Source: Flavobacteriaceae bacterium (GTDB lineage: Bacteria; Bacteroidota; Bacteroidia; Flavobacteriales; Flavobacteriaceae). Taken from it: DNA of 32,000 nucleotides. The notes beneath the pieces were generated by a model, which saw nothing but the letters and a program-made list of their open reading frames with translations, did no database searches and was not told the origin of the DNA. A program made the position numbers and the translations under genes. Positions within the stretch are counted from its first letter, which is position 1. The number at the start of each line of letters is the position of its first letter. Of this stretch, positions 1 through 22,194 are shown piece by piece. The DNA lies in NCBI GenBank assembly GCA_965224465.1, contig OZ245049.1, forward strand, positions 450,001-482,000, read 5' to 3'.

Positions 1-1
1 T

Positions 2-3274: not shown

Positions 3275-3304
3275 GATGCAGGAGAATTATAAATCACCTG
3301 CATC
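3275..3304. terminator. Hairpin between the convergent helicase and hipT-like genes (8-bp stem GATGCAGG/CCTGCATC, 14-nt loop)
   Basis: Perfect inverted repeat read directly. A T-rich tract follows on the minus strand (ttattattgttt) and an A-rich tract follows on the plus strand. The hairpin is conserved at 9344-9373 in copy 2. Confidence 0.4.
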
Positions 3305-3357
3305 TCACAATAAAAAAAGCCATAAACCCCTAGCAATACCCTCTACAAATCATACAA

Positions 3358-4290: not shown

Positions 4291-4615
4291 GAGATGCTAT
4301 TATTTGGTGAACACTAACTGCTCCTATACAATTTTGGCAACATGCCAATAATAAACCCATGCGATCATTTGGATTTAACTTCCAGTTTTTTGTGGCTATA
4401 TTGAGCAACCAACCTTCTGGGATCAATCCTTCAAAAAAAGGAAATAATCGCTCACTTGTAAATGGTTCTTCTTGCACAGGCATGGTAAATGTGATAAAAT
4501 CTTCTGGATTGCTCTGAATATAATCTGATGTATATTCAAAGATATACTCCCCTTGATCACGCTCCGTCAATATACCTGCTGTTAACTCTCCGTATTTAAT
4601 AATTGCTTTTCTCAT
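4283..4615 (-). CDS. HipA N-terminal-subdomain protein (HipS-like, stand-alone 110 aa)
   Basis: LFPFFEGLIPEGWLL matches the HipA N-terminal (couple_hipA) signature. The size and position between the HTH gene and the kinase gene match the HipBST arrangement. Confidence 0.8.
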   Translation of the reverse strand: MRKAIIKYGELTAGILTERDQGEYIFEYTSDYIQSNPEDFITFTMPVQEEPFTSERLFPFFEGLIPEGWLLNIATKNWKLNPNDRMGLLLACCQNCIGAVSVHQIIASHE

Positions 4616-4620
4616 CTAAA

Positions 4621-4827
4621 TTATTTTAAATTACGACTATCTACAACCCCTAATTCATGCCCAAACATTCGCAAGACCAAATTTACCTTTTCTACACTCA
4701 GATTGGTTTTTCCTTGTTCAATTTTTCGTACCACAGTTAAGGCCACCCCTGCCCTTTCAGCAAATTCGGTCTGTGTTAATTGGATTGATTTTCTACGTGC
4801 CTTTACAAAGCTAGCTAAAGTATTCAT
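4621..4827 (-). CDS. XRE-family helix-turn-helix protein (HipB-like), first gene of the hip operon
   Basis: 68 aa. LTQTEFAERAGVALTVVRKIEQGKTN is a typical Cro/C1 HTH. It lies 5 nt upstream of the HipS-like gene. Confidence 0.85.
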   Translation of the reverse strand: MNTLASFVKARRKSIQLTQTEFAERAGVALTVVRKIEQGKTNLSVEKVNLVLRMFGHELGVVDSRNLK

Positions 4828-4833
4828 TATATG

Positions 4834-4929
4834 TTTTTACGTATAAACGAACACAAATATAGTAAATTATATGTAAATACGTATAAAAGACTCTAGAATG
4901 ATTATATTATACGGAAATACATATAAAAC
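4834..4929 (-). promoter_or_regulatory. Putative hip promoter/operator region
   Basis: Three copies of a near-palindromic box centred on TACGTA/TACATA: TTTTACGTATAAAC at 4834-4848, AAATACGTATAAAAG at 4875-4889 and AAATACATATAAAAC at 4915-4929, spaced about 40 nt apart. A minus-strand TATATTTG (plus strand 4854-4861) fits the Bacteroidota -7 consensus TAnnTTTG, 27 nt upstream of the ATG. Confidence 0.35.
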
Positions 4930-5532: not shown

Positions 5533-8500
5533 ATGTACACACAGTTAATAGAAGACTATATTCAAGAAAACAGTAATTCCGTTATAAGAGCGCGTGGAAA
5601 AAACTTATCTGTAAGTGAATATGACGTTTCTCAAGACCTAAAGAGTGCCAATGGAAAAGTTATCGGATCACAGAACGACATCTACACAGTTCATGTTTTC
5701 TACATCATACCTGATACGATAAGCAGTTCTTGTAATTGCCCCTATAATCATGGAGGAATTTGTAAGCACGAAGTTGCTTTTCTTAATCTCTTAATTCTTC
5801 ATTTTGAGCAAGATTTTAATGCCAATAAAGCTTTACCTACCCTTTCAAAATCAACAAACTCCACTAATTCAGACAAAGAAATATGGATTGAATACGATAC
5901 TGCTAGTATTATTAGACATGGAGATTCCGCTGAAAGTATAAGTCCAAATAATAATAATAATAATTCCTATTCCCGAAATTTTGAAGTATCACAAATTGTC
6001 GAAATATCCACACAAAAAAACGGTTTTACTATATCTTTACATACCTATCCTGGCTATAATAGAGGAATTGTAAAAATACGTGTGAACAAATCTATTGTAA
6101 AGGCAAGTTGTACTTGTGATATTAAGAACAATCAAGGTCAGTGTAGTCATTTAAAATTTGGAATTAGATATTTAATAACCGAGCACAATCAGTTATTAGC
6201 AAAGCACCCAGAAATAGCTATTATTCTTTCTGAAGTTAATGAAGATTATGGACTGGATAAAAAATCAAAAGGTAATTTTAGCTTATTTTGGAACGCAGAC
6301 GAAGGCTTATACATAAATTTTAAAGGACCTAAATTTGTGCATTACAATCCTGAGCAACAAAAATTTTCCATCGCAAACAACAATGGTTTTACCCCTTTGA
6401 ACCCCTCAATAGATAATGAGGATATCTACAAACAATTATTGCCTCAAGCAAAAAAAGGAGCCCGTTCTAAAATAGGTGTTGGATTTGCTTTTCTTTTTGA
6501 TTTTCAACCTACATGGAGAGAGCATGAAGGGTTGGAATTGTTATTCCTAAAAGGTAATTTATTAAAAAACGGCACCCGGTTTTCTTCAAAAATCACACCT
6601 ATAAAACAACATGAACTCGTAAAAGAGCTGAGCACTACCAAAGAACTCAAAGAACTAGGAAGCCAATATATACTACTTTCAGAAATCTTAGATTATGATA
6701 AAATTGACAGCTGCTCTTTTGACATATTACAAGAAATATGGGAACCAATGGCTTCGAATAAAACTTACTATAAAGACTGTTATTCCCAAAGCGACTCTTA
6801 TTCTAGACACGACTTGAAGCCTCTAGAAATACAAATCACCCCATTAATAGTACGTTTCGATATTCAAGAAAAAGAATCAATCTTAACCATTGTAATTTCC
6901 CTTAAAACAACAGACCACACTATTAATTTAAACCAAGATTACCGTCTAAACAATGCACTATTACTACAAGATGAAGTATTATATCGTTTCGAAACATTGG
7001 AACAGTATCATGTTTTTCTAGAATACAAAAACAATTTAACCTTTAAAATTTCTTCTAAATTTAAAGAAGACTTTTTTATTCAGGTAATTAAACCCCTAGA
7101 AAAAATTGTCGAAGTCACTTATCATTTAAAAACTAGTAAAACCGTTAAAATTGACTATAAACATCATAAAATTCAAATGTTTATCAGTCAATATTTAGAC
7201 CACGTGGTAATACGTCCAAATCTATACATCACCAAAGACTTGCAATTTGATTTACTAAGTCCAATTTCTTCCATTTTTAATGAAAATACTTTTCATAAAA
7301 GGAATCTAAAAGAGGAACAAAAAATTATTTCCAAGTTCTATAAAAATAACCCCAACCTCACAAAAAAAGCGGTCGCTTCTATTTTCGCCTTACCTTTTAC
7401 AGAATTCATACAGGACTATTGGTTTTTAAAGCAGATCAACCTGTGGAAAACGCAGGGCATTGAAACTTTCGGGCTCAACACCTTGGAAAACTTTAATTAC
7501 CGGACAAGCATGCCTACGGTTAGCCATAGCATCTCCTCACAAACCGATTGGTTTGACGTTCAGATGGAAGTAAAATTTGATGATGAATTAGTTCCGCTAA
7601 AAGTTTTAAAAAAGGCTGTGATGAAACAGCAAGAATATGTCTTACTTAGCGATGGAACCAAAGGTATATTGCCAAAAGAATGGCTTGATAAATTCTCCAA
7701 AATATTAAGAGCTTCACATATTGGAAAAAATGGATTAGAAATCTCAAAATTACGGTTCTCAGCCCTGGACTTACTCTTTAACGAAACCAATGCTACACAA
7801 GACATCCTTGAATACAAAGAAAAGATCCAAGATCTTTTAGCAAATTTTGATACACTTCGCCCCGTAAAAGTATCAAAAAAAATATCCGCTACACTCAGAG
7901 ATTATCAGTTGGCAGGACTTAATTGGTTGAATTTTTTGGATGATTTTAATATAGGAGGCTGTCTAGCAGATGACATGGGACTAGGAAAAACACTTCAAGT
8001 AATTGCTTTTTTACAACATTTAAAAGAAAAAAAGAAAAAAAATAAAGCACATTTAGTAGTACTTCCAACCTCTTTAGTCTATAACTGGGTTGCGGAAATT
8101 GAAAAGTTTTGTCCTAGTTTAAAAATACATATTCACACAGGTATAAAAAGAGAAAAGAACACCGATTCTTTTCAGAAATACGATCTTGTAATCACAACCT
8201 ATGGCTTGGTAATTAGGGATATATCTTTCTTAAAATCTTATACTTTTGAGTATGTAATTTTGGATGAATCACAATCAATTAAAAACCCTACATCACAACG
8301 CTATAAAGCCGTAAAATTATTAAAAGCGAGAAATAGACTTGTACTCACTGGAACTCCTGTAGAAAATAGTTTGATGGATCTATATGCTCAGTTTAACTTT
8401 ATCAACCCAGGATTTTTAAATACACAAACCGATTTTAAAGAAAACTATATCAATCCCATAGAAAAAGAGGGCGTTGAAGTAATTCAAAACGAATTAAGGC

Positions 8501-9270
8501 AATTGATCAATCCTTTTATGCTTCGCAGGACAAAAAAGCAAGTAGCCAAAGATCTTCCTGAAAAAGTGGAACAAATTTTATACTGTTCCATGGGGAAAAA
8601 GCAAGAGCAGCTATATCAATTTTATTTAGCCAAAATCAGAAAATCCATCATGGAGGAAGTTGAAGAGGAAGGCTTAAACAAATCCAAACTAAAGGTCTTA
8701 GCAGGTTTAACCAAACTTCGCCAATTATGTAACTCCCCAAGACTCGTAGGAGAAGACGAGGAAGAATCTGTTAAAATTGAAGAACTATTAACGAGCATCA
8801 AAGAAAAAACAGGCGATCATAAAATCCTTATTTTTTCTCAATTTGTAAAAATGCTACAACTCATAGAAGAACAATTAAAAAAAGAGGGAATTATTTATGA
8901 GTATCTTGATGGAAAAACAAAAAACAGACAAGAACGTGTGGATCGATTTCAATCAGACCCCAAAATTCGTGTGTTTTTAATCAGTTTAAAAGCTGGAGGA
9001 ATAGGACTCAATCTTACCGCAGCAGACTATGTGTATATTGTAGATCCATGGTGGAACCCTGCCGTAGAAAACCAAGCAATTGATAGAACACACCGCATAG
9101 GACAACATAAAAACGTGACTGCCTATCGCATGATCTGTAAAGACACCATCGAAGAAAAAATATTAATACTACAAGAACGAAAAAGAAAACTTTCCGAAGA
9201 TATTATTGCTACAGATGAAAGTTTCGCAAAAAAAATAACGAAAAAAGACCTGGAAGAATTGTTCAGTTAA
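5533..9270 (+). CDS. SNF2/SWI2-family helicase with two SWIM zinc fingers, copy 2 (full length, 1245 aa)
   Basis: SWIM fingers CNCPYNHGGICKHEV and CTCDIKNNQGQCSHL. The helicase motifs are the same as in copy 1. It is collinear with copy 1 at a constant offset of 6068 nt with no indels. Confidence 0.95.
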   Translation: MYTQLIEDYIQENSNSVIRARGKNLSVSEYDVSQDLKSANGKVIGSQNDIYTVHVFYIIPDTISSSCNCPYNHGGICKHEVAFLNLLILHFEQDFNANKALPTLSKSTNSTNSDKEIWIEYDTASIIRHGDSAESISPNNNNNNSYSRNFEVSQIVEISTQKNGFTISLHTYPGYNRGIVKIRVNKSIVKASCTCDIKNNQGQCSHLKFGIRYLITEHNQLLAKHPEIAIILSEVNEDYGLDKKSKGNFSLFWNADEGLYINFKGPKFVHYNPEQQKFSIANNNGFTPLNPSIDNEDIYKQLLPQAKKGARSKIGVGFAFLFDFQPTWREHEGLELLFLKGNLLKNGTRFSSKITPIKQHELVKELSTTKELKELGSQYILLSEILDYDKIDSCSFDILQEIWEPMASNKTYYKDCYSQSDSYSRHDLKPLEIQITPLIVRFDIQEKESILTIVISLKTTDHTINLNQDYRLNNALLLQDEVLYRFETLEQYHVFLEYKNNLTFKISSKFKEDFFIQVIKPLEKIVEVTYHLKTSKTVKIDYKHHKIQMFISQYLDHVVIRPNLYITKDLQFDLLSPISSIFNENTFHKRNLKEEQKIISKFYKNNPNLTKKAVASIFALPFTEFIQDYWFLKQINLWKTQGIETFGLNTLENFNYRTSMPTVSHSISSQTDWFDVQMEVKFDDELVPLKVLKKAVMKQQEYVLLSDGTKGILPKEWLDKFSKILRASHIGKNGLEISKLRFSALDLLFNETNATQDILEYKEKIQDLLANFDTLRPVKVSKKISATLRDYQLAGLNWLNFLDDFNIGGCLADDMGLGKTLQVIAFLQHLKEKKKKNKAHLVVLPTSLVYNWVAEIEKFCPSLKIHIHTGIKREKNTDSFQKYDLVITTYGLVIRDISFLKSYTFEYVILDESQSIKNPTSQRYKAVKLLKARNRLVLTGTPVENSLMDLYAQFNFINPGFLNTQTDFKENYINPIEKEGVEVIQNELRQLINPFMLRRTKKQVAKDLPEKVEQILYCSMGKKQEQLYQFYLAKIRKSIMEEVEEEGLNKSKLKVLAGLTKLRQLCNSPRLVGEDEEESVKIEELLTSIKEKTGDHKILIFSQFVKMLQLIEEQLKKEGIIYEYLDGKTKNRQERVDRFQSDPKIRVFLISLKAGGIGLNLTAADYVYIVDPWWNPAVENQAIDRTHRIGQHKNVTAYRMICKDTIEEKILILQERKRKLSEDIIATDESFAKKITKKDLEELFS

Positions 9271-9343
9271 GAGGTAATAACCCGCAAACTATTCAATACT
9301 GAATGCACTCCATAAATGCAAGTACTTTGTTAATCAATAATGA

Positions 9344-9373
9344 GATGCAGGAGAATTATAAATCACCTGCATT
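9344..9373. terminator. Copy-2 counterpart of the 3275-3304 hairpin
   Basis: GATGCAGG ... CCTGCAT inverted repeat, in the same position relative to the helicase stop codon. Confidence 0.35.
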
Positions 9374-9385
9374 AAACACTAAAAA

Positions 9386-9624
9386 ACCCATGCGATCATT
9401 TGGATTTAACTTCCAGTTTTTTGTGGCTATATTCAGCAACCAACCTTCTGGGATTAAGCCTTCAAAAAAAGGAAATATTCGTTCACTTAGAGACGGTTCC
9501 TTTTGAACAGGCATGGTACATGTGATAAAATCTTGTGGATTGTTCTTAATATATAATCACCTTGATCACGTTCCTTCAATATACCTGTCGTTAACTCTCC
9601 GTATTTAATAATTGCTTTTCTCAT
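9386..9624 (-). pseudogene. HipS-like pseudogene (3'-truncated and frameshifted)
   Basis: Aligns to 4355-4620 of copy 1 but is 22 nt shorter. It reads MRKAIIKYGELTTGILKERDQGDYI and then shifts frame. The PFFEGLIPEGWLL segment survives only in another frame. The last ~24 codons and the whole kinase gene are missing. Confidence 0.8.
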
Positions 9625-9629
9625 GTAAA

Positions 9630-9836
9630 TTATTTTAAATTACGACTATCTAAAACCCCTAATTCATACCCAAACACCCGCAAGACCAAGTATGCTTTTT
9701 CTACACTCAGATTGGTTTTTTGGTGTTCAATTTTTCGTACCACAGTTAAGGCCTCCCCTGCCCTTTCAGCAAATTGGGTCTGTGTTAATTGGATTGATTT
9801 TCTACGGGTCTTTACAATTCTAGCTAAGGTATTCAT
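9630..9836 (-). CDS. XRE-family HTH protein, orphaned HipB-like copy
   Basis: 68 aa, intact, and a close paralogue of 4621-4827 with about 10 substitutions. One operator-like box, TTTTACGTATAAAAC, is retained at 9845-9860. Confidence 0.75.
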   Translation of the reverse strand: MNTLARIVKTRRKSIQLTQTQFAERAGEALTVVRKIEHQKTNLSVEKAYLVLRVFGYELGVLDSRNLK

Positions 9837-10224
9837 TAGATATTTTTACGTATAAAACTATTGAAAATGATACAATTATATGGGAAAGTATATAGAACTA
9901 AGTGAACAGTATATCCATACAGATTTTGTTGGGATATTACGGAAGACAACGCATAAACAACGTTAAAACTAATAAAATAGTATTCTAAAAAAGAGACTAG
10001 AATAGATCTTCAGGAAATAAAGAATTTCAAACGCATCGTACTACACCACCAACATTCGTAAGCCTGGTAAAAACAAGACTATTCATCGTTTGTATATAAA
10101 AAACAAGCACTGCTTACAGAATTGAATCAGCAGGTCCAAGAACCTGTTTTTAAACAGTTCTTTAGAAATTGATGGCTATGAACAAAAGATAAACGAACTT
10201 TAGGCATTTAAAATTAAACAGACA

Positions 10225-10639: not shown

Positions 10640-10880
10640 AAGGTGGAGGAAAATGTATGTGTAGTCAGCATGTAAAAAACCACAACATTTCTGCTGTGGT
10701 TTATAATTTTAATTACTGGTTTTACTCATTGACGCTACATTAAAGATTCGTGCCGTAGTGATGGCGGATATTCGTGCGGCATCAGGGGATTCTCTTTCTA
10801 GGCACGGATTTAAAATCTGCGCTATCGCGTTGGTGGTATATCCAAGCTTTCGGGTATAAACAACCTTGGCCCTCTTTTTA
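10640..10880. repeat. Composite intergenic repeat R2, copy A
   Basis: Shares collinear blocks with 27880-28085. These are ggag.aaaatgtatgtg...catgtaaaaaaccacaaca and a 33-nt near-identical core (10746-10778 versus 28016-28048) holding two (A/T)ATTCGTGC boxes 24 nt apart. Confidence 0.6.
10674..10710. terminator. Bidirectional rho-independent-type terminator
   Basis: aaaaaaCCACAacatttctgcTGTGGtttataatttt: an AAACCACA/TGTGGTTT stem flanked by an A-run and a T-run. It lies between the convergent genes 10225-10584 (+) and 10938-13742 (-). Confidence 0.6.
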
Positions 10881-10937: not shown

Positions 10938-13742
10938 TTAACTACATAATTGCGCTAAAATGGTAGGGTCTTGAATCTTAGCATCTTCTGATAGCAGTTT
11001 CATTTTAGAAATAATTTCTGCAGATTTTGGATCGTCATCAATAAAAGGCAAAAACAAACGTCCACGATGCTGACTATGCACAGGAATAATAGATAAACTC
11101 ACTCCGTTTTTACTTACAATCCCACTTCCTAAATGTATGGTATAGTCACCTAATTTTCCATGGATAAGAATATGACGTTCTTTAACAACTACATTATCGA
11201 GTTGGAATAAAACAGCTGATTCTCTGCACAAAACAGCCCGCATTTCCATGGTAGAATAACTCGCCTCAGGATCCACTCCTCCCACATGAGCCACACTAAC
11301 TACCAAGTCAACATCACGCATCACCTCACTAAAAACAACTGAATTTACATCCTTTAAAGCGATTGGTTTATAGTCCTTTTCACTGTAAAAACAAACATAT
11401 TCTAACGTAGGTGCTTCAATATCAGAAGGCGAATACCAATCTGCCATGGCATACATACTTACAACATATCCCTTTTTGTGATACACCTTTTGCAATCCTT
11501 CATCATAATCTACAGTCCAACCTCTTGATCGGAGTAACGAAACCGTTTTTCTAGGTTGAATTTGATGTCCTTGATACCTTTGAGAACGTGTTCCTGTTTC
11601 AATTTCATTTTTGGTAACCACATACAACTCTCTAAAAATTTGTTTAAAAGGCTGTGTCAACTGCTTGGTAAACGCATGTTTTTGATACATGGATAACGTC
11701 TTACTCGTAAACAGATGTGATGCATGCGCAATCACAAAACGGTCTGTTCCCTCAACCATTAATTGATGATTTTCTAAAGTATAGATTCCGTCAATTTTCC
11801 AAAATCCAGACTGCTTTGTCTTCTTATTAAACAATACCAATTTTCCTAACAGCACTTTTACAATAGGATGTTCCATGATAATCGCTAGTTCATGAACGCT
11901 AAACTCGTCTTCAAGAATCATGGCATCCTCAAGCGATTTTCTAGTTCTAGTATATTGATTTTTTAAATACCTTCTCCCCTCTTGCAATGCTATAATTGCC
12001 TTCTCTTTTTTTAATTTGACAGGCAAACTTTTTAATGACTTTCCGTTTTTCTGGACGTTTAAATCCGCTTTCCCAAAAGTATCTATACGTAATTCAACTT
12101 TAAACACATCTATTTCAACAATGGCATTTTTCATGATCTCTAAGGTTGCTTTCGCTTCCATTGCCCATGAAAAACGAATCCTATCTTCAAAACCTGCATT
12201 TCTAGAAAGGTTGTCTAAGCCAATTTCTACTGCCTTCTTCTCACTTTCTTGCCGTTGTGCACCAAATTGTTTACGCTCTTTTAAAAAGCATTGTAACACA
12301 TTGTAACGTTGCAATACATCTTTCTCTCTATTTGTTTTACTCAAAGGAATCAAGCCCAAAGCTTTGACATATATTTTATCTCGTTTTTCCTTGATTTTTA
12401 ATATGGTTTCTCTGATTTTTAATTCTCCAAGCATTACATTGGAATACAATTTCACTTGGCGATGCGCATGCCCGTCTGAAATGTATTTAGACCCTTCGTG
12501 AATTATTTTCCAATTTGCTTTACCTAAAGCTGTATACACTTCCTGAAACCAATAAACATCAAAAGCACCTTCTTGAAAATCTTGTTTATCAATGGACGAA
12601 TACCGTGCAACTATAGCCTCTTTTTCTTTACTCATATAGTCGGAAGCATGGGCATGGAACCACCAGACCGCACTTTCTAAAGCAGGCATCCCAAGCAACT
12701 GACCTATCCATGGCACTAAATGAGGAACATAACACGCCACTTCTATCCATCTTTTTTTACTGATGTTAGATTTTCCAGCTTTTTCTATAAAATCGTCCAC
12801 CGTTTCACTTTCTAAAGGATGACAATGTTTTATTAAATAGCTAAACACCTCTTTCTTAGAATCCCCGTAATAATACCCTCTAGTAAAATTCTCTTTTTCT
12901 AGGCGATCTAACAATTTAAACAGATAGTCAATCCCCGATACGTTGGATATATTACAAATATACCGCGTTACTTCTGTAGGTAAATCTCCCCTTTCTAACT
13001 CAATATCAATAATTCTATTTTTCAAACTTTTGAAGAGATGAAAAGGCAATACTTCGTTTTTAAACGCTCTTACTTTATACTTATTTTGCCCCGTCTGATC
13101 TAGTAATTTCATAAAATCATCACTCAATAATAATTGAAATTGAAAATCTTCTTCCGTAATAAGCTTATTTTTATAAGCATGGTAGCTAATAAAATCCAAT
13201 GGGGCATTCACTTTTTGATATTGGGTAGCTGTCAAGACATCTATTGATTTTGGTAATTCCGGAGCATTGACAGCACAAGCAGCAATATACATTCTTAAAT
13301 CATAGTAACGTTTTAAAGCCTGAGGATTGTTAATCATTTCTGTTTGAAACTGGCATAAACATGGACCTAAGCCAATGCAAGCTATCAAATTGTACCACCC
13401 TATTCCAACAGCGTATCCCCTTCCGTCTAGCGGTATTTCATTCTTTTTAAATGATGTAGGTAAACGTGCAATCATGTCCTCTAATTCGTCTATTTTATAA
13501 CGTAACAATACGTCAGTATCCGCATACGCCTTAAAAAAACAATTCAAAATAAAATAGGCATTCTCATCCCGATTTCTATACTTACTTTTTGGTTTTAAAT
13601 GATGTCCTTTTAAGTCAGGGATATAGGATTTCAGAAAAGGAATAAGCGTTTTACATTCAGAATATGGGAGTGCTGGATTATTGGCGTAATGCAAAGCCGT
13701 CATCAATTCAAAACTATTCAATTTATGCTTCTCATACCACAT
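10938..13742 (-). CDS. DUF4132 (MolR/YehI-like) domain protein with a conserved acidic C-terminal module, 934 aa
   Basis: The block IVKVLLGKLVLF..FVIAHASHLF..QPFKQIFRELYVVT..SQRYQGHQIQ..LLRSRGW matches my recollection of the DUF4132 signature. C-terminal segment: MRDVDLVVSVAHVGGVDPEAS ... HLGSG ... LFLPFIDDDPKSAEIISK. The start lies 3 nt after the stop of the upstream gene. Confidence 0.7.
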   Translation of the reverse strand: MWYEKHKLNSFELMTALHYANNPALPYSECKTLIPFLKSYIPDLKGHHLKPKSKYRNRDENAYFILNCFFKAYADTDVLLRYKIDELEDMIARLPTSFKKNEIPLDGRGYAVGIGWYNLIACIGLGPCLCQFQTEMINNPQALKRYYDLRMYIAACAVNAPELPKSIDVLTATQYQKVNAPLDFISYHAYKNKLITEEDFQFQLLLSDDFMKLLDQTGQNKYKVRAFKNEVLPFHLFKSLKNRIIDIELERGDLPTEVTRYICNISNVSGIDYLFKLLDRLEKENFTRGYYYGDSKKEVFSYLIKHCHPLESETVDDFIEKAGKSNISKKRWIEVACYVPHLVPWIGQLLGMPALESAVWWFHAHASDYMSKEKEAIVARYSSIDKQDFQEGAFDVYWFQEVYTALGKANWKIIHEGSKYISDGHAHRQVKLYSNVMLGELKIRETILKIKEKRDKIYVKALGLIPLSKTNREKDVLQRYNVLQCFLKERKQFGAQRQESEKKAVEIGLDNLSRNAGFEDRIRFSWAMEAKATLEIMKNAIVEIDVFKVELRIDTFGKADLNVQKNGKSLKSLPVKLKKEKAIIALQEGRRYLKNQYTRTRKSLEDAMILEDEFSVHELAIIMEHPIVKVLLGKLVLFNKKTKQSGFWKIDGIYTLENHQLMVEGTDRFVIAHASHLFTSKTLSMYQKHAFTKQLTQPFKQIFRELYVVTKNEIETGTRSQRYQGHQIQPRKTVSLLRSRGWTVDYDEGLQKVYHKKGYVVSMYAMADWYSPSDIEAPTLEYVCFYSEKDYKPIALKDVNSVVFSEVMRDVDLVVSVAHVGGVDPEASYSTMEMRAVLCRESAVLFQLDNVVVKERHILIHGKLGDYTIHLGSGIVSKNGVSLSIIPVHSQHRGRLFLPFIDDDPKSAEIISKMKLLSEDAKIQDPTILAQLCS

Positions 13743-13745
13743 TTT

Positions 13746-15932
13746 TCAAACATCTGGAAGGGGTAAATACTGTAGGCGTTCTTGAGCATCTATTCCCTTA
13801 ACATTGCGTACAAACTCAATTTCTTTCTCTAAAATTGTAGTTACAATAGCACCATAATAATCATGGTATTGATACTCGTAGTTTTTATTTTCAGCAAGGA
13901 GAAAAACCAAGTCATTGATGGCAGTAACAAGTTTTTTGATATTTATTACTGCAGGATAGAGCAAGGAACTCGAAGTAGCAAACACCCGTTCTATAAATCC
14001 TTTTTTAACTGTTGATTCCAAGCATAATTTAGGATCTAATAAGGGTGATATATTTTTGTAATTGATGAGTCCAAATCCATTTTTAAAATGATATTCCTTA
14101 ACAGTCCCTTCAAATTTATCAATAAATAACTGCTCATTTTTAATAATTTTAGCCCTTGTCATATACGCTTGAATGATGGACGCATTGAAATCTAAAAATG
14201 ACGGATGGTCTATTAATTTTGAAATAATTTCTAAACCTGCCAAACGTTGGTCTATTTTTTTTGATACCACTATATGTTCTACAATTCTCTTTATCTCTAA
14301 ATCATCCTGCGCAAGCACTAAGGAAATAAGGCTTGTTCGTATCTCTTTATTTTTTTTCGCAAGCAATCCCTCTATTTTCAGCATATCCAAAGGTGTTATC
14401 CTAATGGACTTTAACACCCGTAAACTTGTGGCTAGTACAGAAATATTACGATCATTTAAACCTTGATACATTACCTGTTTTTCCCAAGAAGTGTCACTAA
14501 GCTTTATGGGGGTAATTTTATCTGACGACGCTCCTACTGACCAATTAAAATGATTTGGAAACACAACTCGCATATATTTTTCTCTAGATTCGGAAGGCAA
14601 TTCTGAAATATTTTGAGCCAATAATTCTAACTGTGCCGCTTGACTATTTGCAATGGTAAAATCATAAAAGAAATTGGGTGTAATTTTATAATAGCTCCAT
14701 AAGAACACCTGCCCATTATGTACTGTACCTTTGCTAGGAAGTGATTTTGCAGTACGGTATATTTTACAAAACAAATCGTCTTTTATTTTAACAGAAAACA
14801 CATTTTTAAGCAACCAATAATCCACTTCTACATCTGCTCCAAAATTGGCTTCTACGTAGGCATACAAATGTGTGCTAGACCTACCTGTAGTATTGATAAA
14901 CATACAGGCTAGTAATTTTTTTTCTTTGCATCCCTTTTCTAGAATATGTACTGCATGCAAATTTGCTTGATCTACATCCGTGAGTCCGATATACCACAAA
15001 GCGATATACACTTCCAAATTGTCGTTGCTTTTTAAAGCTTGCGCCACGAGCAAGGAATTTTCAAAAAACGAAGCACTTATTTCTAACACCCGTTTTACTG
15101 TCGTTTTTTTAGGAGCTTCCCATCCAAAACCAAACCAGCAGTTCACAGCACGAATCACACTACTAAAGCGCATTAAATCATGCTGTAAAATAATGGTTAT
15201 AAAATAATGTAGCGCCCCTAAATGGGTTTCATCCAATACTTCTAAAATAGTTTGACGAAGCCCTTCTTGGCGCTGAGCTGCAATTAATAAGTCCGCAACT
15301 AATTTCCAATTTTCTTCTTTATCGCTTAGTAATAATCCTTTTAAAATACTTCTAGAAACCCCTCCTATTTCGTCTTCAGATTGTAGAATATCTTTCACCA
15401 AGTTTCTAATTTCAGGGTCTCGTTCTGAGAAAATAACCGCAAAAATATATTCGTAACCAGTGCCTTCAAAATAGACATTAAATCGAATGAGTTCTTTTAT
15501 ATCCATTCCCTTAAATCCTTTATCTAATGATTCAAAAATCTGGGTAAGCACACTAAATTTGTTTGTTGTATAGGCATCGGAAGGCTGGATACGAAAAGAA
15601 CGACGTGCGTATCCCATTTGATATGGCGATGTATTTAAAAGATTCCAGACGTTGGGAATGTATTCTGAGATAACCGATCCGAAAATAAGAAGTATCAATT
15701 GTTTCCCCTCTTTTTCTAAAAACGGATTCAACATGGCATCCTCTCCAAAATGCTGTTTGTAGAGTTTTAGCTCTTTATGAACATCCCTATAATAACCGAT
15801 TTTAGGGATAAAACCACAAATAATACTACCTAAAACCTTATATTTTTCACTAAAACTACTAAAATCATTCTCTATTATTTTCTGTTGTTTTTTGGACGCA
15901 ATTAATGCCAGCGCTGTTTCTTTTTGAATCAT
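13746..15932 (-). CDS. Hypothetical protein, 728 aa, apparently all-helical, middle gene of the operon
   Basis: Long uninterrupted ORF, spaced 16 nt and 3 nt from its neighbours. No motif recognised. Confidence 0.75.
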   Translation of the reverse strand: MIQKETALALIASKKQQKIIENDFSSFSEKYKVLGSIICGFIPKIGYYRDVHKELKLYKQHFGEDAMLNPFLEKEGKQLILLIFGSVISEYIPNVWNLLNTSPYQMGYARRSFRIQPSDAYTTNKFSVLTQIFESLDKGFKGMDIKELIRFNVYFEGTGYEYIFAVIFSERDPEIRNLVKDILQSEDEIGGVSRSILKGLLLSDKEENWKLVADLLIAAQRQEGLRQTILEVLDETHLGALHYFITIILQHDLMRFSSVIRAVNCWFGFGWEAPKKTTVKRVLEISASFFENSLLVAQALKSNDNLEVYIALWYIGLTDVDQANLHAVHILEKGCKEKKLLACMFINTTGRSSTHLYAYVEANFGADVEVDYWLLKNVFSVKIKDDLFCKIYRTAKSLPSKGTVHNGQVFLWSYYKITPNFFYDFTIANSQAAQLELLAQNISELPSESREKYMRVVFPNHFNWSVGASSDKITPIKLSDTSWEKQVMYQGLNDRNISVLATSLRVLKSIRITPLDMLKIEGLLAKKNKEIRTSLISLVLAQDDLEIKRIVEHIVVSKKIDQRLAGLEIISKLIDHPSFLDFNASIIQAYMTRAKIIKNEQLFIDKFEGTVKEYHFKNGFGLINYKNISPLLDPKLCLESTVKKGFIERVFATSSSLLYPAVINIKKLVTAINDLVFLLAENKNYEYQYHDYYGAIVTTILEKEIEFVRNVKGIDAQERLQYLPLPDV

Positions 15933-15948
15933 AATTATTTGTATTATT

Positions 15949-16371
15949 TTACCAGAAGGTTCCTGTTAAAAATGTAAGACGCATAAAGGTAATTTCACTC
16001 TTTTCATCCAAGTGTATCGTTTCAAATATATCTTTAATTTCTATGGCATCTATAAAAACAACAAAAACACCATCTTTAAAAGCGAGTAAGACATTTTCAA
16101 TTGCCGTTTCTAAGACTTCTTTTTTGGTGTTAAAAAGTACTCCCACACCTATTTTACCCGTAGTAGCTTTTTCTTGAATTACAGTAGTGCTTAAAAAAGA
16201 AAGCATGTTCTTATTTTCTGTTCTTGTATTAAACCGATGCACTTCACTACGTACACATTCCATAAGGAGTTCTCTTAAATTTGTTGGCTGTTGCAGGACT
16301 TCAATAGGGTAAACATGCACCCTTTTTTTTCCTAAGCGCCTTAATTTTACAGTGATTATTTGTGTACTCAT
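15949..16371 (-). CDS. Hypothetical protein, 140 aa, first gene of the operon
   Basis: ORF 16 nt upstream of the 728-aa gene on the same strand. No motif recognised. A minus-strand TACATTTG (plus strand 16460-16467) is a possible -7 box about 90 nt upstream. Confidence 0.6.
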   Translation of the reverse strand: MSTQIITVKLRRLGKKRVHVYPIEVLQQPTNLRELLMECVRSEVHRFNTRTENKNMLSFLSTTVIQEKATTGKIGVGVLFNTKKEVLETAIENVLLAFKDGVFVVFIDAIEIKDIFETIHLDEKSEITFMRLTFLTGTFW

Positions 16372-16865
16372 TTTATCTATTAGCTGTTTTTATTCCGTTT
16401 TATAAAAGCACTTCCAATATAGAAAATCATTTCCATTAATTGCAATGCATTTTTAGCATCAAATGTATTTGGTATTAGCACTTAACTATGTACTTCAATC
16501 TAACGAATATTTTTTCCTAATAGGCGCTCTAGCCATGGGAGTATTTCTTAGATAAAAGCAATATATTTCACACGCCAACACTCCAGAATCAAATTTTTAC
16601 GTGATACTATCATGCTCGAATCTACGTTTTTAATGAGGATTAATTCTTTCTAATTTATATTCGAATAGTTCTATTTGATATTTGATAAATACCTCCGTTT
16701 TTTATCTATTTGCACGTATTGAAACGTTTTGACTCCTTCATTGTTTCGACTCCGATGATCCAAGGGTGATCTTATACCAATCACAATCCAAAATAACCGA
16801 TATAAATAGTTTGTTTTACGTTATACGTTGTTGAGAAACAGAACTATCACTAAGGCGGTTATCTA

Positions 16866-16930
16866 ATTTTCGCCTCCTTCTTATTTTTTTAGAGATGTTC
16901 ATGACTTCCACTTCACTACAGTTCACTCAA
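16866..16930. repeat. 49-bp repeat family, variant unit (orientation A)
   Basis: ttttcgcctccttcttatttttttagagatgttcatgacttccacttcactacagttcactc. Closest to the reverse complement of the variant at 28311-28372. Confidence 0.7.
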
Positions 16931-17234
16931 TTAATTAATTTCGTGTCTACGTAAACTCTTTTGATTTTCTTATGGGATTGCAATGATGTGGGTACTTACA
17001 CAAGTAATTATGCCTCTGTATACCGCTTACTCGTCATTAATTTATTTAACACAAAAGAAACTCCTAAGTTGCTCTACTTAAATTTGTTTAGCCTGCCCCG
17101 TAATTGATGCGGAGTCAGTACCGAGATTTGTAGAAGTATATTCTTATGCCTCAATCGCAAATAATCTTCAGATAAAACGGCACGAATTATACCCTAGCGA
17201 TTTACTAATAAGTATTCACAGTTTCCAATTTTAT

Positions 17235-17305
17235 GGAGCTCCTGATAGCTTCGCAGTTATTCACTCCCTTTTATTTTTTTAGAGGTGCTCATGATAGCTA
17301 CGCAG
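17235..17305. repeat. 49-bp repeat family, partial unit plus one full unit (17257-17305, orientation A)
   Basis: ttattcactcccttttatttttttagaggtgctcatgatagctacgcag differs from the consensus at 2 positions. Confidence 0.85.
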
Positions 17306-17702
17306 TTCAGAACGATACTCCTGTATATAAAGGACTTGCACCCTCTATATTAATAAACTACCTTTCGGAAAGTCAATAAGATCGGGGCAAGCCCACGAGG
17401 CATGAAAAAGAAAAAACTTAATCATTTCGATGCAAGCATCGGGGAATTAAACCCACTGATGGGATTAAAAGATACCCGTGCTGGGTACACACAACGTATA
17501 AAAATAATAAGGATTAAGTGCTAAACCAAAAGTTGGTGTATTTTAACAAAGTCCGCCAAATTTAAAACTTGACGACTAAAAGAAAATAACGGTAAAATTG
17601 TGATTTTTGCTAAGTGCTAAATTCGAAAGTAAGTACATTTTAAGCCCTTACTATTCATATACGAACCAGTTGTAAATAATGCTACCATCACATCAAAAAA
17701 AC

Positions 17703-18734
17703 ATGAAAACAAAAATACTAATATTAGCATTAATAAGTACTTTAATTATGGGGTGCCAAAAAACAAAAAAAACAAATGCTATGAATAATGAATACGAATG
17801 GAATGTCTCTATAAACGCTCCAAAAAATTTCCCTGCAACTATATACTACGCATCTTTAGATGGTGTAGAAATGAGAAGAGATGGAACTATAGATAGCGGT
17901 TGGGGTATGTCAGGTTCTTCTAGCGAAGGACTAAAAACGATACCTAAAAGACTAGATATAATATGGATTTCTTATATTGAAAATCAATTTTACAAAGGAA
18001 ACTTCTTATTAAATCAAGAAAAAATTAAACAAATTTTTGAGGAAGGTTTTTTAAATGATGTAAGAGACGGTATTACAAGGTTTCATAATTTTGAATTTGT
18101 AGTAAACGTAGCTCCAGGAGGTACAGTAGCTCTTTTTATGAAAGGCTTAGGAGGTTTTCAACGAGAAGTAGGCTTTTTTAAAGCAGAAAAAACAGAAGTG
18201 ACATGGAAACACTTTGTACCTATGGGAAATCAAAATCGTAAAGATTTTGTAGCTGTAATGTTAGAAGATGTAGATAAAGATTCATTGGCTCATTACAAAA
18301 CAAATGGAATTCCATTTGACCGTTGGGAAAATTACCGAGAATATTTTAGTTTAAAAACTACTATGCCTCCAAAATATAAAATAGATGGGTTAGTGTATGA
18401 CTCTTTTAATGGAGAACGTTATTATGGTGAAAACAATGCCTATCATATAAACGAAGACTACAATAAATTACCCATACCTAAAGAAATCATTATTAACTGG
18501 ATTGAGAAAGATAATGATGCATACAAGTATATTTCAGTATTAAACATAAAAGAAAGTGAATATACAAAAATGAGTGATTTTTTAAAAAAACACGATAATA
18601 AAGCTGATTTTTATATAGAACCCTATATTCTTATAAATGTAAGAGAAATCAATCTGTTTTTAAAAAGTGAAACTGAAAAAATAGAGATTGAACTTCTTCC
18701 GTATATTGTTAAACGTAGATTACTGAAATTTTAA
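17703..18734 (+). CDS. Lipoprotein with an internal two-fold repeat; candidate immunity protein for the adjacent phospholipase
   Basis: Signal peptide and lipobox MKTKILILALISTLIMGC, so I prefer the ATG at 17703 over the track start at 17679. Internal repeat: IPKRLDIIWISYIENQFYKG versus IPKEIIINWIEKDNDAYKY. The stop lies 2 nt before the DUF2235 start. The immunity role is inferred from adjacency only. Confidence 0.7.
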   Translation: MKTKILILALISTLIMGCQKTKKTNAMNNEYEWNVSINAPKNFPATIYYASLDGVEMRRDGTIDSGWGMSGSSSEGLKTIPKRLDIIWISYIENQFYKGNFLLNQEKIKQIFEEGFLNDVRDGITRFHNFEFVVNVAPGGTVALFMKGLGGFQREVGFFKAEKTEVTWKHFVPMGNQNRKDFVAVMLEDVDKDSLAHYKTNGIPFDRWENYREYFSLKTTMPPKYKIDGLVYDSFNGERYYGENNAYHINEDYNKLPIPKEIIINWIEKDNDAYKYISVLNIKESEYTKMSDFLKKHDNKADFYIEPYILINVREINLFLKSETEKIEIELLPYIVKRRLLKF

Positions 18735-18736
18735 TT

Positions 18737-20527
18737 ATGGGAATTATTTTTGGAGAATATGTTCCTAGTATAGAGAGAACTGAATATGAAAAAGTAGTTA
18801 CGGTAGGAGTGTTTTTTGACGGTACATTAAATAACCGTAAAAATACACGTGCTCGTAAGACTGCATTGGAAGAAGAAACGGATGCCAATCCTTCTTTAAG
18901 TACTGTTGTAAATAAAGATGGAACTTCCGAAAGAAATTTAGGGATAAGTGCTTTTAATAAAGAAAAAGATGTAAGCTATTTTAATGACGAATCTAACGTT
19001 TCTCGTTTAGAACGGTTTTATGAAAAAGATGATGCCCTAGTCTTAAAAGTATATGTTGAAGGTATTGGTACTGATAATTTTGAAGGTGATGCGTTTTTAA
19101 GTAAAACCACAGGGGCTTTTAGTAGAGGTATTGGTGACAAAGTAAGCAAAGCTTGTAAAAAAATTGTAGAAAAATTAAATATATTAAATTACGATGCCCC
19201 TAAAAGTAGAATCATAGATATATTACAATTTGATATCTATGGTTTTAGTAGAGGGGCTGCTGCGGCTCGTCATTTTATATATCAAGTAATGCGTACAGAT
19301 AAATTTACATTAGAAGCTGATATTATTACAGGATTTACAATAGATCCCCATCCAACAAGGGGTTATTTGGGGCAATATTTGTATGATCAAAAAATAAGTG
19401 TTTATGAAGTTAAGATTCGTTTTGTAGGTCTGTATGAAACCGTAGCATCTTATGGTATAATTCATTGGAATGATGTATTTCAATTAAAATTAGACAAATT
19501 ATATTATGCCGATAAAGTAGTTCACTTAACAGCACAAGACGAAATAAGAGAAAACTTTAGTTTAATAGACATTACAAGTGCAGGAAAGAAAGGAGTAACA
19601 ATCACAATGCCTGGAGTACATTCGGATATTGGAGGTGGCTATGAAGAAAATATAAAACAAGAAAAAGTATTGCTTTGGGATGGAAAACGCAAAAAATTTG
19701 ATACCTTAACTTCTAATAGAATTTTATATCATTATCTTTTAGAAGGTTGGTTTAATAAAAAGACTATAGACAAAGAGAGGATGTTTCAACTCTTTTTTCT
19801 GAGAAACGAAGTGTATGGAAAACGACAAAACATAACAAACACATACAGCGTTATTCCGTTACAAATAATGGCGAAATTATCGAATGACAATAAGGCACTA
19901 ATTGAAACAAAAAAACTAGAAGAGTTTTTCAATACAAACGATGATGGTTTTTTATCGAGTATTCAAAAAAAGTTATTTAGTCAATTAAAAAATAGTACCG
20001 GTAATATTGTAGAATTATTAAAATTTGACAGATTAGAAAATGCTGAAAACATCTGGAAAAAAATGGTAGAAAAATATTATAATAAAGGAACTGAATATAC
20101 GCATAAAAGCATCAGTAAATCTCAATTTAAAGAATATTATTATCAGATTAAAAAAGACAAAAAAGCACTGTTAAGAGAATGTGATTTATTTATAGAAAAC
20201 AGCTCAGAATTAGAAGAATTAATTAAGAATAACTGGAAACTCATACGTTCCTATAAAAATGACATAGATGATTACACTCCCTTAAAAACCACTAAAAAAG
20301 AGACCATTCAAGAGAATCTGGGAGATATTTTAGATATTTCAAAAACCTTTATGGCTGGTACAATACTAGATGAAGTAGTTGTAATAGCTTATAAAAAGGA
20401 TATTGATAATATTAAAAAATTAAGAAATATATATTTGCATATTTCTCATACTTATGAAAATAGTGCCTTATTTCTTGAACCACTCGCTCCAAGCTTTGAT
20501 TACATGCGAAAATACAGAAAAGGATAA
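18737..20527 (+). CDS. DUF2235 alpha/beta-hydrolase, Tle1-like phospholipase effector with a ~230-aa K/E/N-rich C-terminal extension
   Basis: Hallmark motifs in order: VGVFFDGTLNN, SNVSRLERFY, IYGFSRGAAAARHF (GxSxG nucleophile), LTAQDEIRENF, PGVHSDIGGGY. No signal peptide. Confidence 0.85.
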   Translation: MGIIFGEYVPSIERTEYEKVVTVGVFFDGTLNNRKNTRARKTALEEETDANPSLSTVVNKDGTSERNLGISAFNKEKDVSYFNDESNVSRLERFYEKDDALVLKVYVEGIGTDNFEGDAFLSKTTGAFSRGIGDKVSKACKKIVEKLNILNYDAPKSRIIDILQFDIYGFSRGAAAARHFIYQVMRTDKFTLEADIITGFTIDPHPTRGYLGQYLYDQKISVYEVKIRFVGLYETVASYGIIHWNDVFQLKLDKLYYADKVVHLTAQDEIRENFSLIDITSAGKKGVTITMPGVHSDIGGGYEENIKQEKVLLWDGKRKKFDTLTSNRILYHYLLEGWFNKKTIDKERMFQLFFLRNEVYGKRQNITNTYSVIPLQIMAKLSNDNKALIETKKLEEFFNTNDDGFLSSIQKKLFSQLKNSTGNIVELLKFDRLENAENIWKKMVEKYYNKGTEYTHKSISKSQFKEYYYQIKKDKKALLRECDLFIENSSELEELIKNNWKLIRSYKNDIDDYTPLKTTKKETIQENLGDILDISKTFMAGTILDEVVVIAYKKDIDNIKKLRNIYLHISHTYENSALFLEPLAPSFDYMRKYRKG

Positions 20528-20734: not shown

Positions 20735-20877
20735 TATACCCTTTTTAGAACAAGTCTAGATTTGGGTTTGGTAGACTTTAAAATTGGACTTTATTATTAT
20801 TATTCACTCCCTTTTATTTTTTTAGAGGTGTTCATGATAGCTTCGCAGTTATTCACTCCCTTTTATTTTTTTAGAGG
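20735..20877. repeat. Repeat head (~62 nt) plus 1.6 units of the 49-bp repeat (units from 20800 and 20849, orientation A), truncated by IS30
   Basis: The head catataccctttttagaacaagtctagatttgggtttggtagactttaaaattggac is the inverted counterpart of 28233-28293. Unit 1 matches the consensus exactly. Unit 2 stops at ...ttagagg, where the IS30 terminal repeat begins. Confidence 0.85.
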
Positions 20878-22003
20878 CTTAAATTCAACTAATAAACGCA
20901 ACTTTTCGATTTGATTCTATGATGGTTATATTTTCAAAACAGAAAAGTAGGAAAACCTACCTTTCTTGTCTTGATGGATATGTATCTTACGGTCTCAAAT
21001 CTCGAAAAAAGAAGTTGTATGAAACACATCACCCAAGCGCAAAGATACACAATTTGTTGCATGTTAAAACAAGGTTATAAACAGGTTGAGATAGCAGCTG
21101 CTATAGGAAAAGACAAGTCTGTTATTAGCAAAGAGATTAAGCGTAATTCAGACAAAAGAAATGGAGTTTACAAGCATGAATTAGCCCAAAAAAAGTATGC
21201 TAAACGTCATAAAGAAAAGCCTAAAAGAAAACGCTTTACAGAAGATATTCAACAAGCAATAGAGTTGTTATTGCGAGACGATTATAGTCCTGAGCAAGTA
21301 GTTGGTGTCCTAAAAAAACAAGGTAAAGAAACGGTGTCTATTGAGCGTATATATCAGCATATTAGGGAAGACAAGAGGAATGATGGTGATTTACATACAC
21401 ACCTTCGCAGACAGGGAAGGAGATATAGAAAACGTGGCTCATCAAAGGATTCTAGAGGGGTTATAAAGAATCGTATTAGTATAGAACAACGCCCTGAAGT
21501 TGTTGAACAAAGAAATCGATTTGGAGATTTAGAGGTCGATTTAATCATAGGTAAAAACCATAATCAAGCCATACTTACCGTAAATGATAGAGCTTCTGGA
21601 ATGCTTAAAATGAAAAAAGTAAGCTCTAAAGAAGCAGTTGTTGTCACTAAAGCTATCAATGAAATATTAGAAGACTGGAAGCCTTATCTACATACTATAA
21701 CAGCTGATAATGGAAAAGAATTTGCAGGCCATGAGCAGGTTGCAGAAAATTTATGTATTGATTACTTTTTTGCGCATCCATATCACTCTTGGGAAAGAGG
21801 ATCTAACGAAAATTTAAATGGTTTGATTAGACAATATTTTGCCAAAGGAAGTGACTTTACAAACCTAACAGATCAAAGAATCAAAGAGGTAGAAACAAAA
21901 TTAAATAACAGACCTAGGAAGAGACATAAATATCAAAACCCTATATTTGTAATGGAACAATTATTATTTAACTAAAAGTTGCGTTTGTGACTTGAATTCA
22001 GCA
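20877..22003 (+). mobile_element. IS30-family insertion sequence (~1.13 kb)
   Basis: Imperfect terminal inverted repeats: gcttaaattcaactaataaacgcaactttt (20877-) versus the reverse complement of aaaagttgcgtttgtgacttgaattcagc (-22003). One transposase gene. No clear target-site duplication was seen. Confidence 0.8.
21019..21975 (+). CDS. IS30-family DDE transposase
   Basis: N-terminal HTH (MKHITQAQRYTICCMLKQGYKQVEIA). DDE region: EVDLIIG ... TITADNGKEF ... SWERGSNENLNGLIRQYF. I prefer the ATG at 21019 over the TTG at 20971. Confidence 0.9.
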   Translation: MKHITQAQRYTICCMLKQGYKQVEIAAAIGKDKSVISKEIKRNSDKRNGVYKHELAQKKYAKRHKEKPKRKRFTEDIQQAIELLLRDDYSPEQVVGVLKKQGKETVSIERIYQHIREDKRNDGDLHTHLRRQGRRYRKRGSSKDSRGVIKNRISIEQRPEVVEQRNRFGDLEVDLIIGKNHNQAILTVNDRASGMLKMKKVSSKEAVVVTKAINEILEDWKPYLHTITADNGKEFAGHEQVAENLCIDYFFAHPYHSWERGSNENLNGLIRQYFAKGSDFTNLTDQRIKEVETKLNNRPRKRHKYQNPIFVMEQLLFN

Positions 22004-22194
22004 ACCATTTATTTACGGATATCAATTTTCTTACGCATATATCAATTAAAAAGATGCTATTGCCATATATAATTCTATCTTTGGTTCAAAATATGCATGC
22101 AATCAGCTTGTTTTAGGAGCCTTTTTTATCACTAAAAAAACACCCCCTACAACCAATGCTTTTTCATATCAAAAAAAACTATATCAAAAAAAAC

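Follow-up and report, generated by a model that had tools for sequence, protein, structure and literature searches.

A probable two-gene module with a large DUF5724-DUF4132-DUF7737 gene interrupted by an in-frame TGA in a Flavobacteriaceae bacterium

Organization of the locus

This study concerns a minus-strand gene cluster in a 32,000-nt stretch of the genome of a Flavobacteriaceae bacterium (assembly GCA_965224465.1, contig OZ245049.1, forward-strand positions 450,001-482,000), to which we refer as the window and in which coordinates are given. The cluster consists of three open reading frames (ORFs) of 140, 728 and 934 codons with tight spacing, 16 nt between the first two and 3 nt between the second and the third, exactly as the initial annotation of this stretch had it. 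There, the ORFs had been interpreted as a three-gene operon, in which a DUF4132 protein is joined by two novel partners. This interpretation does not hold, as the two larger ORFs form one TGA-interrupted gene. We consider it highly probable that the locus is a two-gene module, coding for proteins of 140 and ~1,665 amino acids (aa), in which the large gene is cut by a real TGA. The features on which this reading is based are the following:

15949..16371, minus strand: small partner gene of 140 aa, apparently intact (ORF call)
13746..15932, minus strand: N-terminal fragment of the large gene, 728 codons plus TGA (Pfam DUF5724; aligns with residues 1-728 of full-length homologs of ~1,665 aa)
13746..13748, minus strand: in-frame TGA that breaks the large gene (homolog alignment, conserved Trp column)
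13740..13742, minus strand: ATG two codons past the TGA (TGA AAA ATG), a possible re-initiation codon (sequence)
10938..13742, minus strand: C-terminal fragment of the large gene, 934 codons, with the rest of the DUF5724 helical repeats, DUF4132 and DUF7737 (Pfam and AlphaFold2, AF2)

The interrupted large gene

The 728-aa and 934-aa ORFs lie in one frame with only TGA-AAA between them, the translation across the junction reading ...PLPDV*KMWYEK..., and they are the sole case in the window of two same-frame open segments of at least 100 aa that are parted by one stop. Gene callers report two ORFs because the in-frame TGA cuts the gene in two. In Pfam, both match the same family: of the 1,214-position DUF5724 model, positions 34-696 are found in the 728-aa ORF (E 1e-127) and positions 700-1214 in the 934-aa ORF. 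The 728-aa protein, which had initially been described as matching no family, is the N-terminal 60% of DUF5724. Read across the stop, the domain order is DUF5724-DUF4132-DUF7737, with all three domains above their gathering scores (428 + 491 bits for DUF5724 at a cut-off of 25, 140 bits for DUF4132 at 27 and 107 bits for DUF7737 at 27). The same order is found in the Deinococcus radiodurans protein DR_A0166 and in 119 of 120 homologs listed for the fused sequence.

These homologs, taken as the 120 best matches to the fused 1,664-aa query, span 1,481-1,756 aa. All are single proteins with 41-55% identity to the query, and all except one measure 1,644-1,756 aa and cover 97-100% of it; the named ones come mostly from Flavobacteriaceae, Sphingobacteriaceae and Saprospiraceae. 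The window copy does not encode such a single polypeptide of ~1,650-1,700 aa, as the TGA leaves 728 + 934 codons. At the column of the TGA, 116 of the homologs have a Trp and four a Phe, and the alignment suggests that the lesion is most simply a TGG>TGA transition. In a survey of one genome per species, we obtained 79 loci that encode the large protein; the gene is unbroken in 78 of them, and the one other lesion is a frameshift in a Saprospiraceae metagenome-assembled genome (MAG). Domain matches and alignments alike show that a single DUF5724-DUF4132-DUF7737 gene underlies both ORFs.

Apart from the TGA, this gene has no frameshift and no second stop. Where the family is conserved to 95% or more, the fused protein keeps 95.2% of the columns in the N-terminal half and 96.5% in the C-terminal half, with homolog means of 98.4% and 98.9%, respectively, which puts the window copy in the lower tail, within the range for the most divergent member. 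This retention of conserved columns speaks for a young lesion, though a tolerated one or an error would fit as well. The arrangement is like that of other nonsense-interrupted genes, be they young pseudogenes or genes split by a stop and restart, in that a single stop falls in frame on a conserved codon and the frame is otherwise intact; the window copy also has a start codon 3 nt past the stop. In the reading that we favor, the TGA would be genuine, a nonsense mutation of fairly recent date that struck a dispensable gene, in a region with other broken genes and mobile elements. As the TGA is taken to be real, the large protein would here be inactive, or else be made as two chains via re-initiation at the ATG 3 nt past the stop. 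The window copy is probably a damaged member of a known, biochemically uncharacterized family.

An error of sequencing or assembly, with the organism itself carrying TGG and one intact 1,664-aa gene, would account for the single-base difference at a codon so uniformly conserved, as well as for ~5 kb of coding sequence that has no other defect. A metagenome search for the exact sequence pattern at the TGA yielded 0 matches, and no independent copy of the sequence was found. Substitution errors are uncommon in finished assemblies, however, and the proteins of the window lie on a 5.24-Mb contig; moreover, the rare ATG two codons downstream would have to be an unrelated coincidence, and other genes in the window are genuinely degraded. 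We therefore consider an error quite unlikely.

Programmed recoding of the TGA, either as Trp (by a reassigned code or near-cognate readthrough) or as selenocysteine, would likewise restore a full-length protein, and we regard it as extremely unlikely. The aligned residue is Trp, which is what is inserted when tRNA-Trp misreads UGA, and the 14 other large ORFs tabulated in the window all stop with TAA and never with TGA, which we read as the usual low-GC bias. In a code 4 or code 25 organism, however, many in-frame TGAs are expected, and such a signature is missing here: Trp is encoded by TGG in the large ORFs (85 codons across the 15 ORFs tabulated), and no other ORF is split by an in-frame TGA, even though out-of-frame TGA trinucleotides are abundant. 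Because the long ORFs use TGG for Trp and have no internal TGA, we take TGA to be an ordinary stop in this organism. Selenocysteine or programmed readthrough is unsupported, because the sequence past the TGA forms no significant RNA structure, be it like a selenocysteine insertion sequence (SECIS) or another stable one (z +0.52), because an Rfam scan of the window gave no match, and because the homologs have Trp at this position and not Cys, the residue that selenocysteine usually substitutes.

It is possible, if doubtful, that the gene has undergone a functional fission, in which translation stops at the TGA and re-initiates at the ATG 3 nt on, and in which both halves assemble, the locus then being a three-cistron operon with an 84-kDa helical N-terminal and a 108-kDa C-terminal product. 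The context of TGA-AAA-ATG is A-rich, and the start codon looks acquired because a Met is found at this column in just 1 of the 120 homologs. Furthermore, the halves are otherwise intact, with ~95-96% of the conserved residues kept, and helical-repeat scaffolds are in principle divisible between repeats. On the other hand, none of the 120 best protein matches is a half-length product and none of the 79 genomic loci is split at the site of the TGA; the stop removes a near-invariant Trp; and the chance of meeting a start-like codon so close to a random stop, within two codons, is not very small, as we put it at a few per cent.

Domain structure of the large protein

The presence of DUF4132 in the 934-aa ORF, which had been recognized from its sequence motifs, is confirmed by Pfam, and so is the acidic module at its C-terminus, which corresponds to DUF7737 and has strongly conserved polar motifs. 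The domains of this ORF are:

12159..13739, minus strand: C-terminal part of DUF5724, a helical-repeat scaffold; residues 2-528 of the 934-aa ORF (Pfam profile 700-1214, AF2, Foldseek)
11517..12044, minus strand: DUF4132 domain with the motifs QPFKQIFRELY, RYQGHQIQ and LLRSRGW; residues 567-742 (Pfam E 9e-41)
10947..11249, minus strand: DUF7737 domain; residues 832-932 (Pfam E 5e-31)

The AF2 model of the 934-aa ORF has a predicted local distance difference test (pLDDT) score of 81.7 and is all-helical in residues 1-538 and alpha/beta in residues 540-934. When searched with Foldseek against the PDB and BFVD, it yielded only non-significant matches to solenoids of the HEAT/ARM type, and nothing further emerged from permissive Pfam scans of the C-terminal pieces. 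The most conserved part of the large protein is DUF7737 with the helix just before it, where the motifs RDxD, DPE, HLGSG, SQHRGR and DDDPK include positions with no or almost no variation across 23-45 homologs; nowhere in the family are invariant polar residues packed more densely than in the last ~130 residues. The loops 820-828 and 889-896 carry most of these conserved residues, yet are modeled with low confidence, which would be typical of loops that become ordered on binding a partner or ligand.

Taken together, the intact large protein would start with an extended helical scaffold of the HEAT/ARM kind (DUF5724), continue with an alpha/beta DUF4132 domain and end in a very highly conserved DUF7737 module, and the invariant cluster of acidic, His and Arg residues would be a candidate ligand-binding or catalytic site. 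In the literature on DUF4132, DUF5724, DUF7737 and the yeh genes, we found no biochemical function. The earlier statement that no DUF4132 protein has a demonstrated activity is correct in the biochemical sense, but experimental data do exist for the architecture as a whole (PMC8533742, PMC9650054), as described below.

The small partner family

The 140-aa protein had also been described as lacking a recognizable family. This is true of curated families, as it has no match in Pfam, NCBIfam or PADLOC, but the protein belongs to a large uncharacterized family, which includes D. radiodurans DR_A0165. A profile search that covered 1.84 billion representatives yielded 1,689 cluster representatives at E <= 1e-3 and 858 at E <= 1e-10. 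The listed members are almost all standalone proteins of ~140 aa, and the match always reaches the C-terminal end. They share the motifs K-x-LGKK, GK[VI]GFG, AF-DG-F-VF and a C-terminal FIRLTFL-G-x-hydrophobic-W, with 234 of the 249 members scored ending in G-x-hydrophobic-W (or F/Y in place of W). An assignment to Aminotran_4 was dismissed (E 0.0014, 19 bits against a cut-off of 28.5 bits).

The AF2 model of the 140-aa protein (pLDDT 79) has the topology b-b-a-(two-helix insert)-b-b-b, which suggests that the protein probably adopts a beta-grasp-like fold. This topology is compatible with that of ubiquitin-like, MoaD-ThiS and Ras-binding-domain proteins, and the Foldseek neighbors of the model are the Ras-binding domain of PI3K, MoaD, FAT10, ISG15 and SUMO, none of them significant (best E 0.055, template modeling score <= 0.43). 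As in beta-grasp modifiers, a Gly close to the free C-terminus is invariant in the family, and one record of the Joint Genome Institute labels a member as 'molybdopterin converting factor small subunit'. Unlike these proteins, the 140-aa protein carries a helical insert of ~35 residues, and the family ends in G-x-hydrophobic-W and not in the GG of ubiquitin-like and MoaD-ThiS proteins, except in Deinococcus. The combination expected of a modifier, a C-terminal Gly-Gly together with E1, E2 or JAB enzymes, was not found for this family: among 141 nearest neighbors of the module, drawn from 37 diverse loci, none of these enzyme families is among the 25 families common to most module neighbors.

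Genomic distribution of the module

In 69 of the 79 loci, a homolog of the 140-aa protein adjoins the large gene on the same strand, usually 3-170 nt apart; it lies upstream of the large gene in about 50 loci and downstream in 18. The window conforms to this pattern, with only 16 nt between its small and large genes, which share one orientation. The ten loci without an adjoining small gene comprise contig ends, one MAG and four Capnocytophaga loci; the latter (L011, L013, L014 and L018) have two tandem full-length paralogs of the large gene and no small partner detectable within 10 kb. The co-occurrence proposed for the three ORFs thus applies to the 140-aa gene, but not to the 728-aa ORF, which is not a separate gene. 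Judging from these gene arrangements, the 140-aa gene is a true, co-conserved partner of the large gene, whichever of the two comes first.

The module is found in Bacteroidota, Bacillota, Acidobacteriota, Cyanobacteria, Proteobacteria, Campylobacterota MAGs and archaea of the Methanobrevibacter type. No further gene family accompanies it in more than 10 of the 79 loci. In about nine Flavobacteriaceae loci (L004, L008, L016, L017, L043 and related ones), a divergent gene for a leucine-rich-repeat (LRR) protein of ~835 aa lies just upstream of the module, and in 7-9 of the Flavobacteriaceae loci, extra genes of ~110-125 aa follow the small gene; all these neighbors are lineage-specific and absent from the window.

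Relationship to the Deinococcus drA0165-drA0166 operon

A tblastn search of plasmid and secondary-replicon records, with the C-terminal 400 aa as query, matched chromosome II of D. radiodurans, where a 134-aa hypothetical protein and then a 1,626-aa DUF5724-DUF4132-DUF7737 protein are encoded right after trxC. The 134-aa protein matches the small-family profile with an hhalign probability of 99.6% (E 3.5e-24). The radiation/desiccation response motif (RDRM) GGTTATGCTATTTACATAAC has been reported 83 nt upstream of DRA0165 (PMC8533742), and we found it exactly 83 nt upstream of this gene pair (positions 3804-3823 of locus L082). Because the published motif sits at exactly the reported position, the pair is the drA0165-drA0166 operon.

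By sequence comparison, the window module is homologous to drA0165-drA0166 and represents the same two-gene module: in both, a protein of ~134-140 aa is encoded immediately upstream of a DUF5724-DUF4132-DUF7737 protein of ~1,630-1,665 aa. Between the two large proteins, the C-terminal 690 residues are 40% identical, the N-terminal scaffold only about 24%. They differ in that the Deinococcus large gene has no interruption, with a DdrO-bound RDRM box ahead of the pair (PMC8533742), whereas the window copy has the TGA. The small proteins differ at the C-terminus, which is ...AGG in DR_A0165 but G-x-hydrophobic-W in the window protein, as in most family members.

This link brings in the experimental work on the Deinococcus genes. 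The operon is strongly up-regulated on depletion of DdrO, and the DRA0166 protein increases after mitomycin C treatment in an IrrE-dependent manner (PMC8533742). The product of DR_A0165 ('SEP068184') increases after gamma irradiation and H2O2 treatment; deletion of drA0165 leads to more and its overexpression to less H2O2 resistance, and thioredoxin Trx1 is among the proteins pulled down with DR_A0165 (PMC9650054). The same study states that DR_A0165 is confined to Deinococcus and lacks an RDRM (PMC9650054). Both statements are contradicted by our observations, as the family has at least 1,689 representatives across many phyla and the motif is present at 83 nt.

Comparison with defense systems and the Escherichia coli yeh genes

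The initial annotation had placed the cluster among the cargo of defense or conflict islands, as three separate proteins with a possible functional link to the DUF4132/SWIM/MoxR/vWA cluster of E. coli, and the yehF-yehQ context that it cited agrees with the RefSeq annotation. Several observations fit this reading. The window is variable, rich in repeats and insertion sequences (IS), and contains HipA-like toxin genes, a Tle1-like effector and SNF2 helicases with SWIM motifs; the module is patchily distributed across phyla, archaea included; and a few neighbors elsewhere match defense ATPase models. We nevertheless find a defense role very unlikely. Two of the three supposed proteins derive from one gene, and a scan of the three ORFs with PADLOC-DB v2 gave 0 matches at E <= 1. 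Among the 141 neighbors, lineage-specific LRR proteins, sigma factors and tetratricopeptide-repeat proteins occur most often, and only a handful match defense ATPase models; no neighbor family is conserved. A search of phages gave no matches, and plasmid matches were confined to large replicons, none of them mobilizable. Lastly, the module stands amid housekeeping genes in Bacteroides finegoldii and amid ordinary chromosomal genes in D. radiodurans.

The relationship to the E. coli genes is equally limited. YehI and YehH (MolR) resemble the large protein in having a DUF4132 domain and a long helical N-terminal region, and YehI aligns with residues 1239-1544 of the fused protein (hhalign probability 91%). 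This similarity is confined to the DUF4132 region and its continuation up to residue ~814 of the 934-aa ORF, and YehI stops where DUF7737 begins, without the module formed by RDxD, DPE, HLGSG, SQHRGR and DDDPK. YehK is unrelated to the 140-aa family. The MoxR AAA+ ATPase, vWA, SWIM and WGR neighbors of a Yeh-type DUF4132 system were not found either: no such gene adjoins the module in the window, and neither these families nor SNF2 are among the 25 families common to most of the 141 neighbors. The SWIM motifs of the window belong to SNF2 helicases more than 1.6 kb from the module, and the link drawn to the E. coli context does not stand.

The surrounding region

Two features flank the module directly:

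16372..17678, no strand assigned: divergent intergenic region of 1,307 nt toward a plus-strand DUF2931 gene, without an ORF of at least 50 aa and with copies of a dispersed ~49-nt repeat
10677..10702, minus strand: hairpin and T-run, a candidate terminator (aaaccacagca-gaaa-tgttgtggttt, then TTTT), 236 nt past the stop

The former had been described as an ORF-free leader. That it is free of ORFs was borne out, but the region is a divergent intergenic one and at most a putative leader; searches for generic sigma-70 promoters and for those of the Bacteroidota type (TTTG...TAnnTTTG) upstream of the module gave nothing convincing. Similarly, the hairpin and its T-run are present at the position of the proposed terminator, but a generic terminator scan did not call the hairpin at 10702..10677, which lies within a dispersed repeat with a second copy at 27872-27952.

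The ~49-nt unit (TTATTCACTCCCTTTTATTTTTTTAGAGGTGYTCATGATAGCTWCGCAGTT) occurs at 16867-17307, 20800-20899 and 28084-28372, in short tandem arrays and single degenerate copies across three intergenic regions and in both orientations. Tandem Repeats Finder reports 2.8 perfect copies at 28097-28232, and Rfam has no match; the unit could be similar to repetitive extragenic palindromic (REP) sequences or miniature inverted-repeat transposable elements (MITEs). A perfect inverted repeat of 82 nt (20796-20877 and 28155-28236) flanks a 7.3-kb segment with an IS30-like transposase (20971-21975), a 448-aa ORF (22156-23502) and a 1,155-aa ORF (23602-27069, minus strand), both large ORFs without a Pfam family. 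This segment may be a composite mobile or invertible element.

On the other side of the module, positions 1-4838 and 6069-9847 form a direct duplication of ~90-93% identity, which includes an SNF2-family helicase, the first copy of which runs off the start of the window. The SWIM assignment made earlier for these helicases is borne out in part: two CxCx(n)CxH motifs are present, but the Pfam SWIM score of 18.2 bits lies just below the cut-off of 19.6 bits. In the first copy of the duplication, a HipA-like kinase is spread over two overlapping ORFs, Couple_hipA (4283-4615) and HipA_C (3358-4290), an arrangement that we take to resemble HipS/HipT. The region at 17679-20527 encodes a DUF2931 protein, followed by a protein with the catalytic domain of a Tle1-like type VI secretion system (T6SS) phospholipase; the two may be an effector with its accessory or immunity gene. 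Decayed and mobile genes are found elsewhere in the window: besides the IS30-like transposase, there is a truncated RhuM-family gene (29178-29489, profile positions 62-157 of 252 only) beside a DDE transposase (29531-30964), and this truncation next to a transposase points to gene decay in the region.

Discussion

By analogy with Deinococcus, the intact module would be a stress-responsive two-protein complex that helps the cell to cope with damaged DNA or with oxidative stress, and the conserved G-x-hydrophobic-W C-terminus of the small protein may serve to bind or control the conserved DUF4132-DUF7737 module. A number of observations weigh against our interpretation. As for the lesion, the best homolog of the fused protein is only 55% identical, which makes a base-calling error at the TGA possible, and the rarity of the re-initiation ATG in the family hints that the split is tolerated or compensated, not simply inactivating. 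As for the proteins, the beta-grasp call for the small protein is weak given its best Foldseek E-value; its family has no sequence relative in the PDB by profile search, and profile searches of the PDB with the whole large family and with its C-terminal 400 aa gave nothing credible for DUF4132-DUF7737. As for the complex and its role, DR_A0166 is mentioned only as a neighboring gene and is not among the named interactors of DR_A0165 (PMC9650054). Bacteroidetes SOS boxes as published (GGA-N5-TCC and CTAA-N5-TTAG; PMC8565304), Cheo boxes and RDRM-like boxes were not found upstream in the window and are unenriched in 75 loci; ahead of the module in Bacteroidota and Bacillota loci, SOS-type boxes were likewise not found. 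The proposed stress-response role, in which we have low confidence, would thus be extrapolated from one distant organism.

A bolder scenario, which we think unlikely, would join these elements to the fission of the large gene. The module would then be a widespread stress system, built of a small protein with a ubiquitin fold and a giant HEAT-like protein with a new catalytic or ligand-binding site in DUF4132-DUF7737, and the large gene would here be functionally split by stop and restart at TGA-AAA-ATG. Such a system may range across Bacteroidota, Bacillota, Deinococcota, Cyanobacteria, Proteobacteria and methanogenic archaea, with a free C-terminus in G-x-hydrophobic-W, or in GG in Deinococcus.

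Returning to the two-gene module with its interrupted large gene, we see the most useful results of this study in the merged gene model, in the small family as a constant partner and in the bridge to the Deinococcus data. In annotation, the two 'hypothetical proteins' ought to be joined into a single DUF5724-DUF4132-DUF7737 entry, with a flag that marks the gene as interrupted; as a damaged example, the window copy is not the best entry point for the study of this family. Furthermore, an unannotated ~140-aa protein family, which counts at least 1,689 cluster representatives and has no model in Pfam or NCBIfam, is tied to the DUF5724/DUF4132/DUF7737 proteins as an obligate-looking partner, and both families are connected to the sole experimental data available, those on the drA0165-drA0166 operon of D. 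radiodurans. The module is a sizable 'known unknown' with an extremely conserved C-terminal domain, and it deserves biochemical study.

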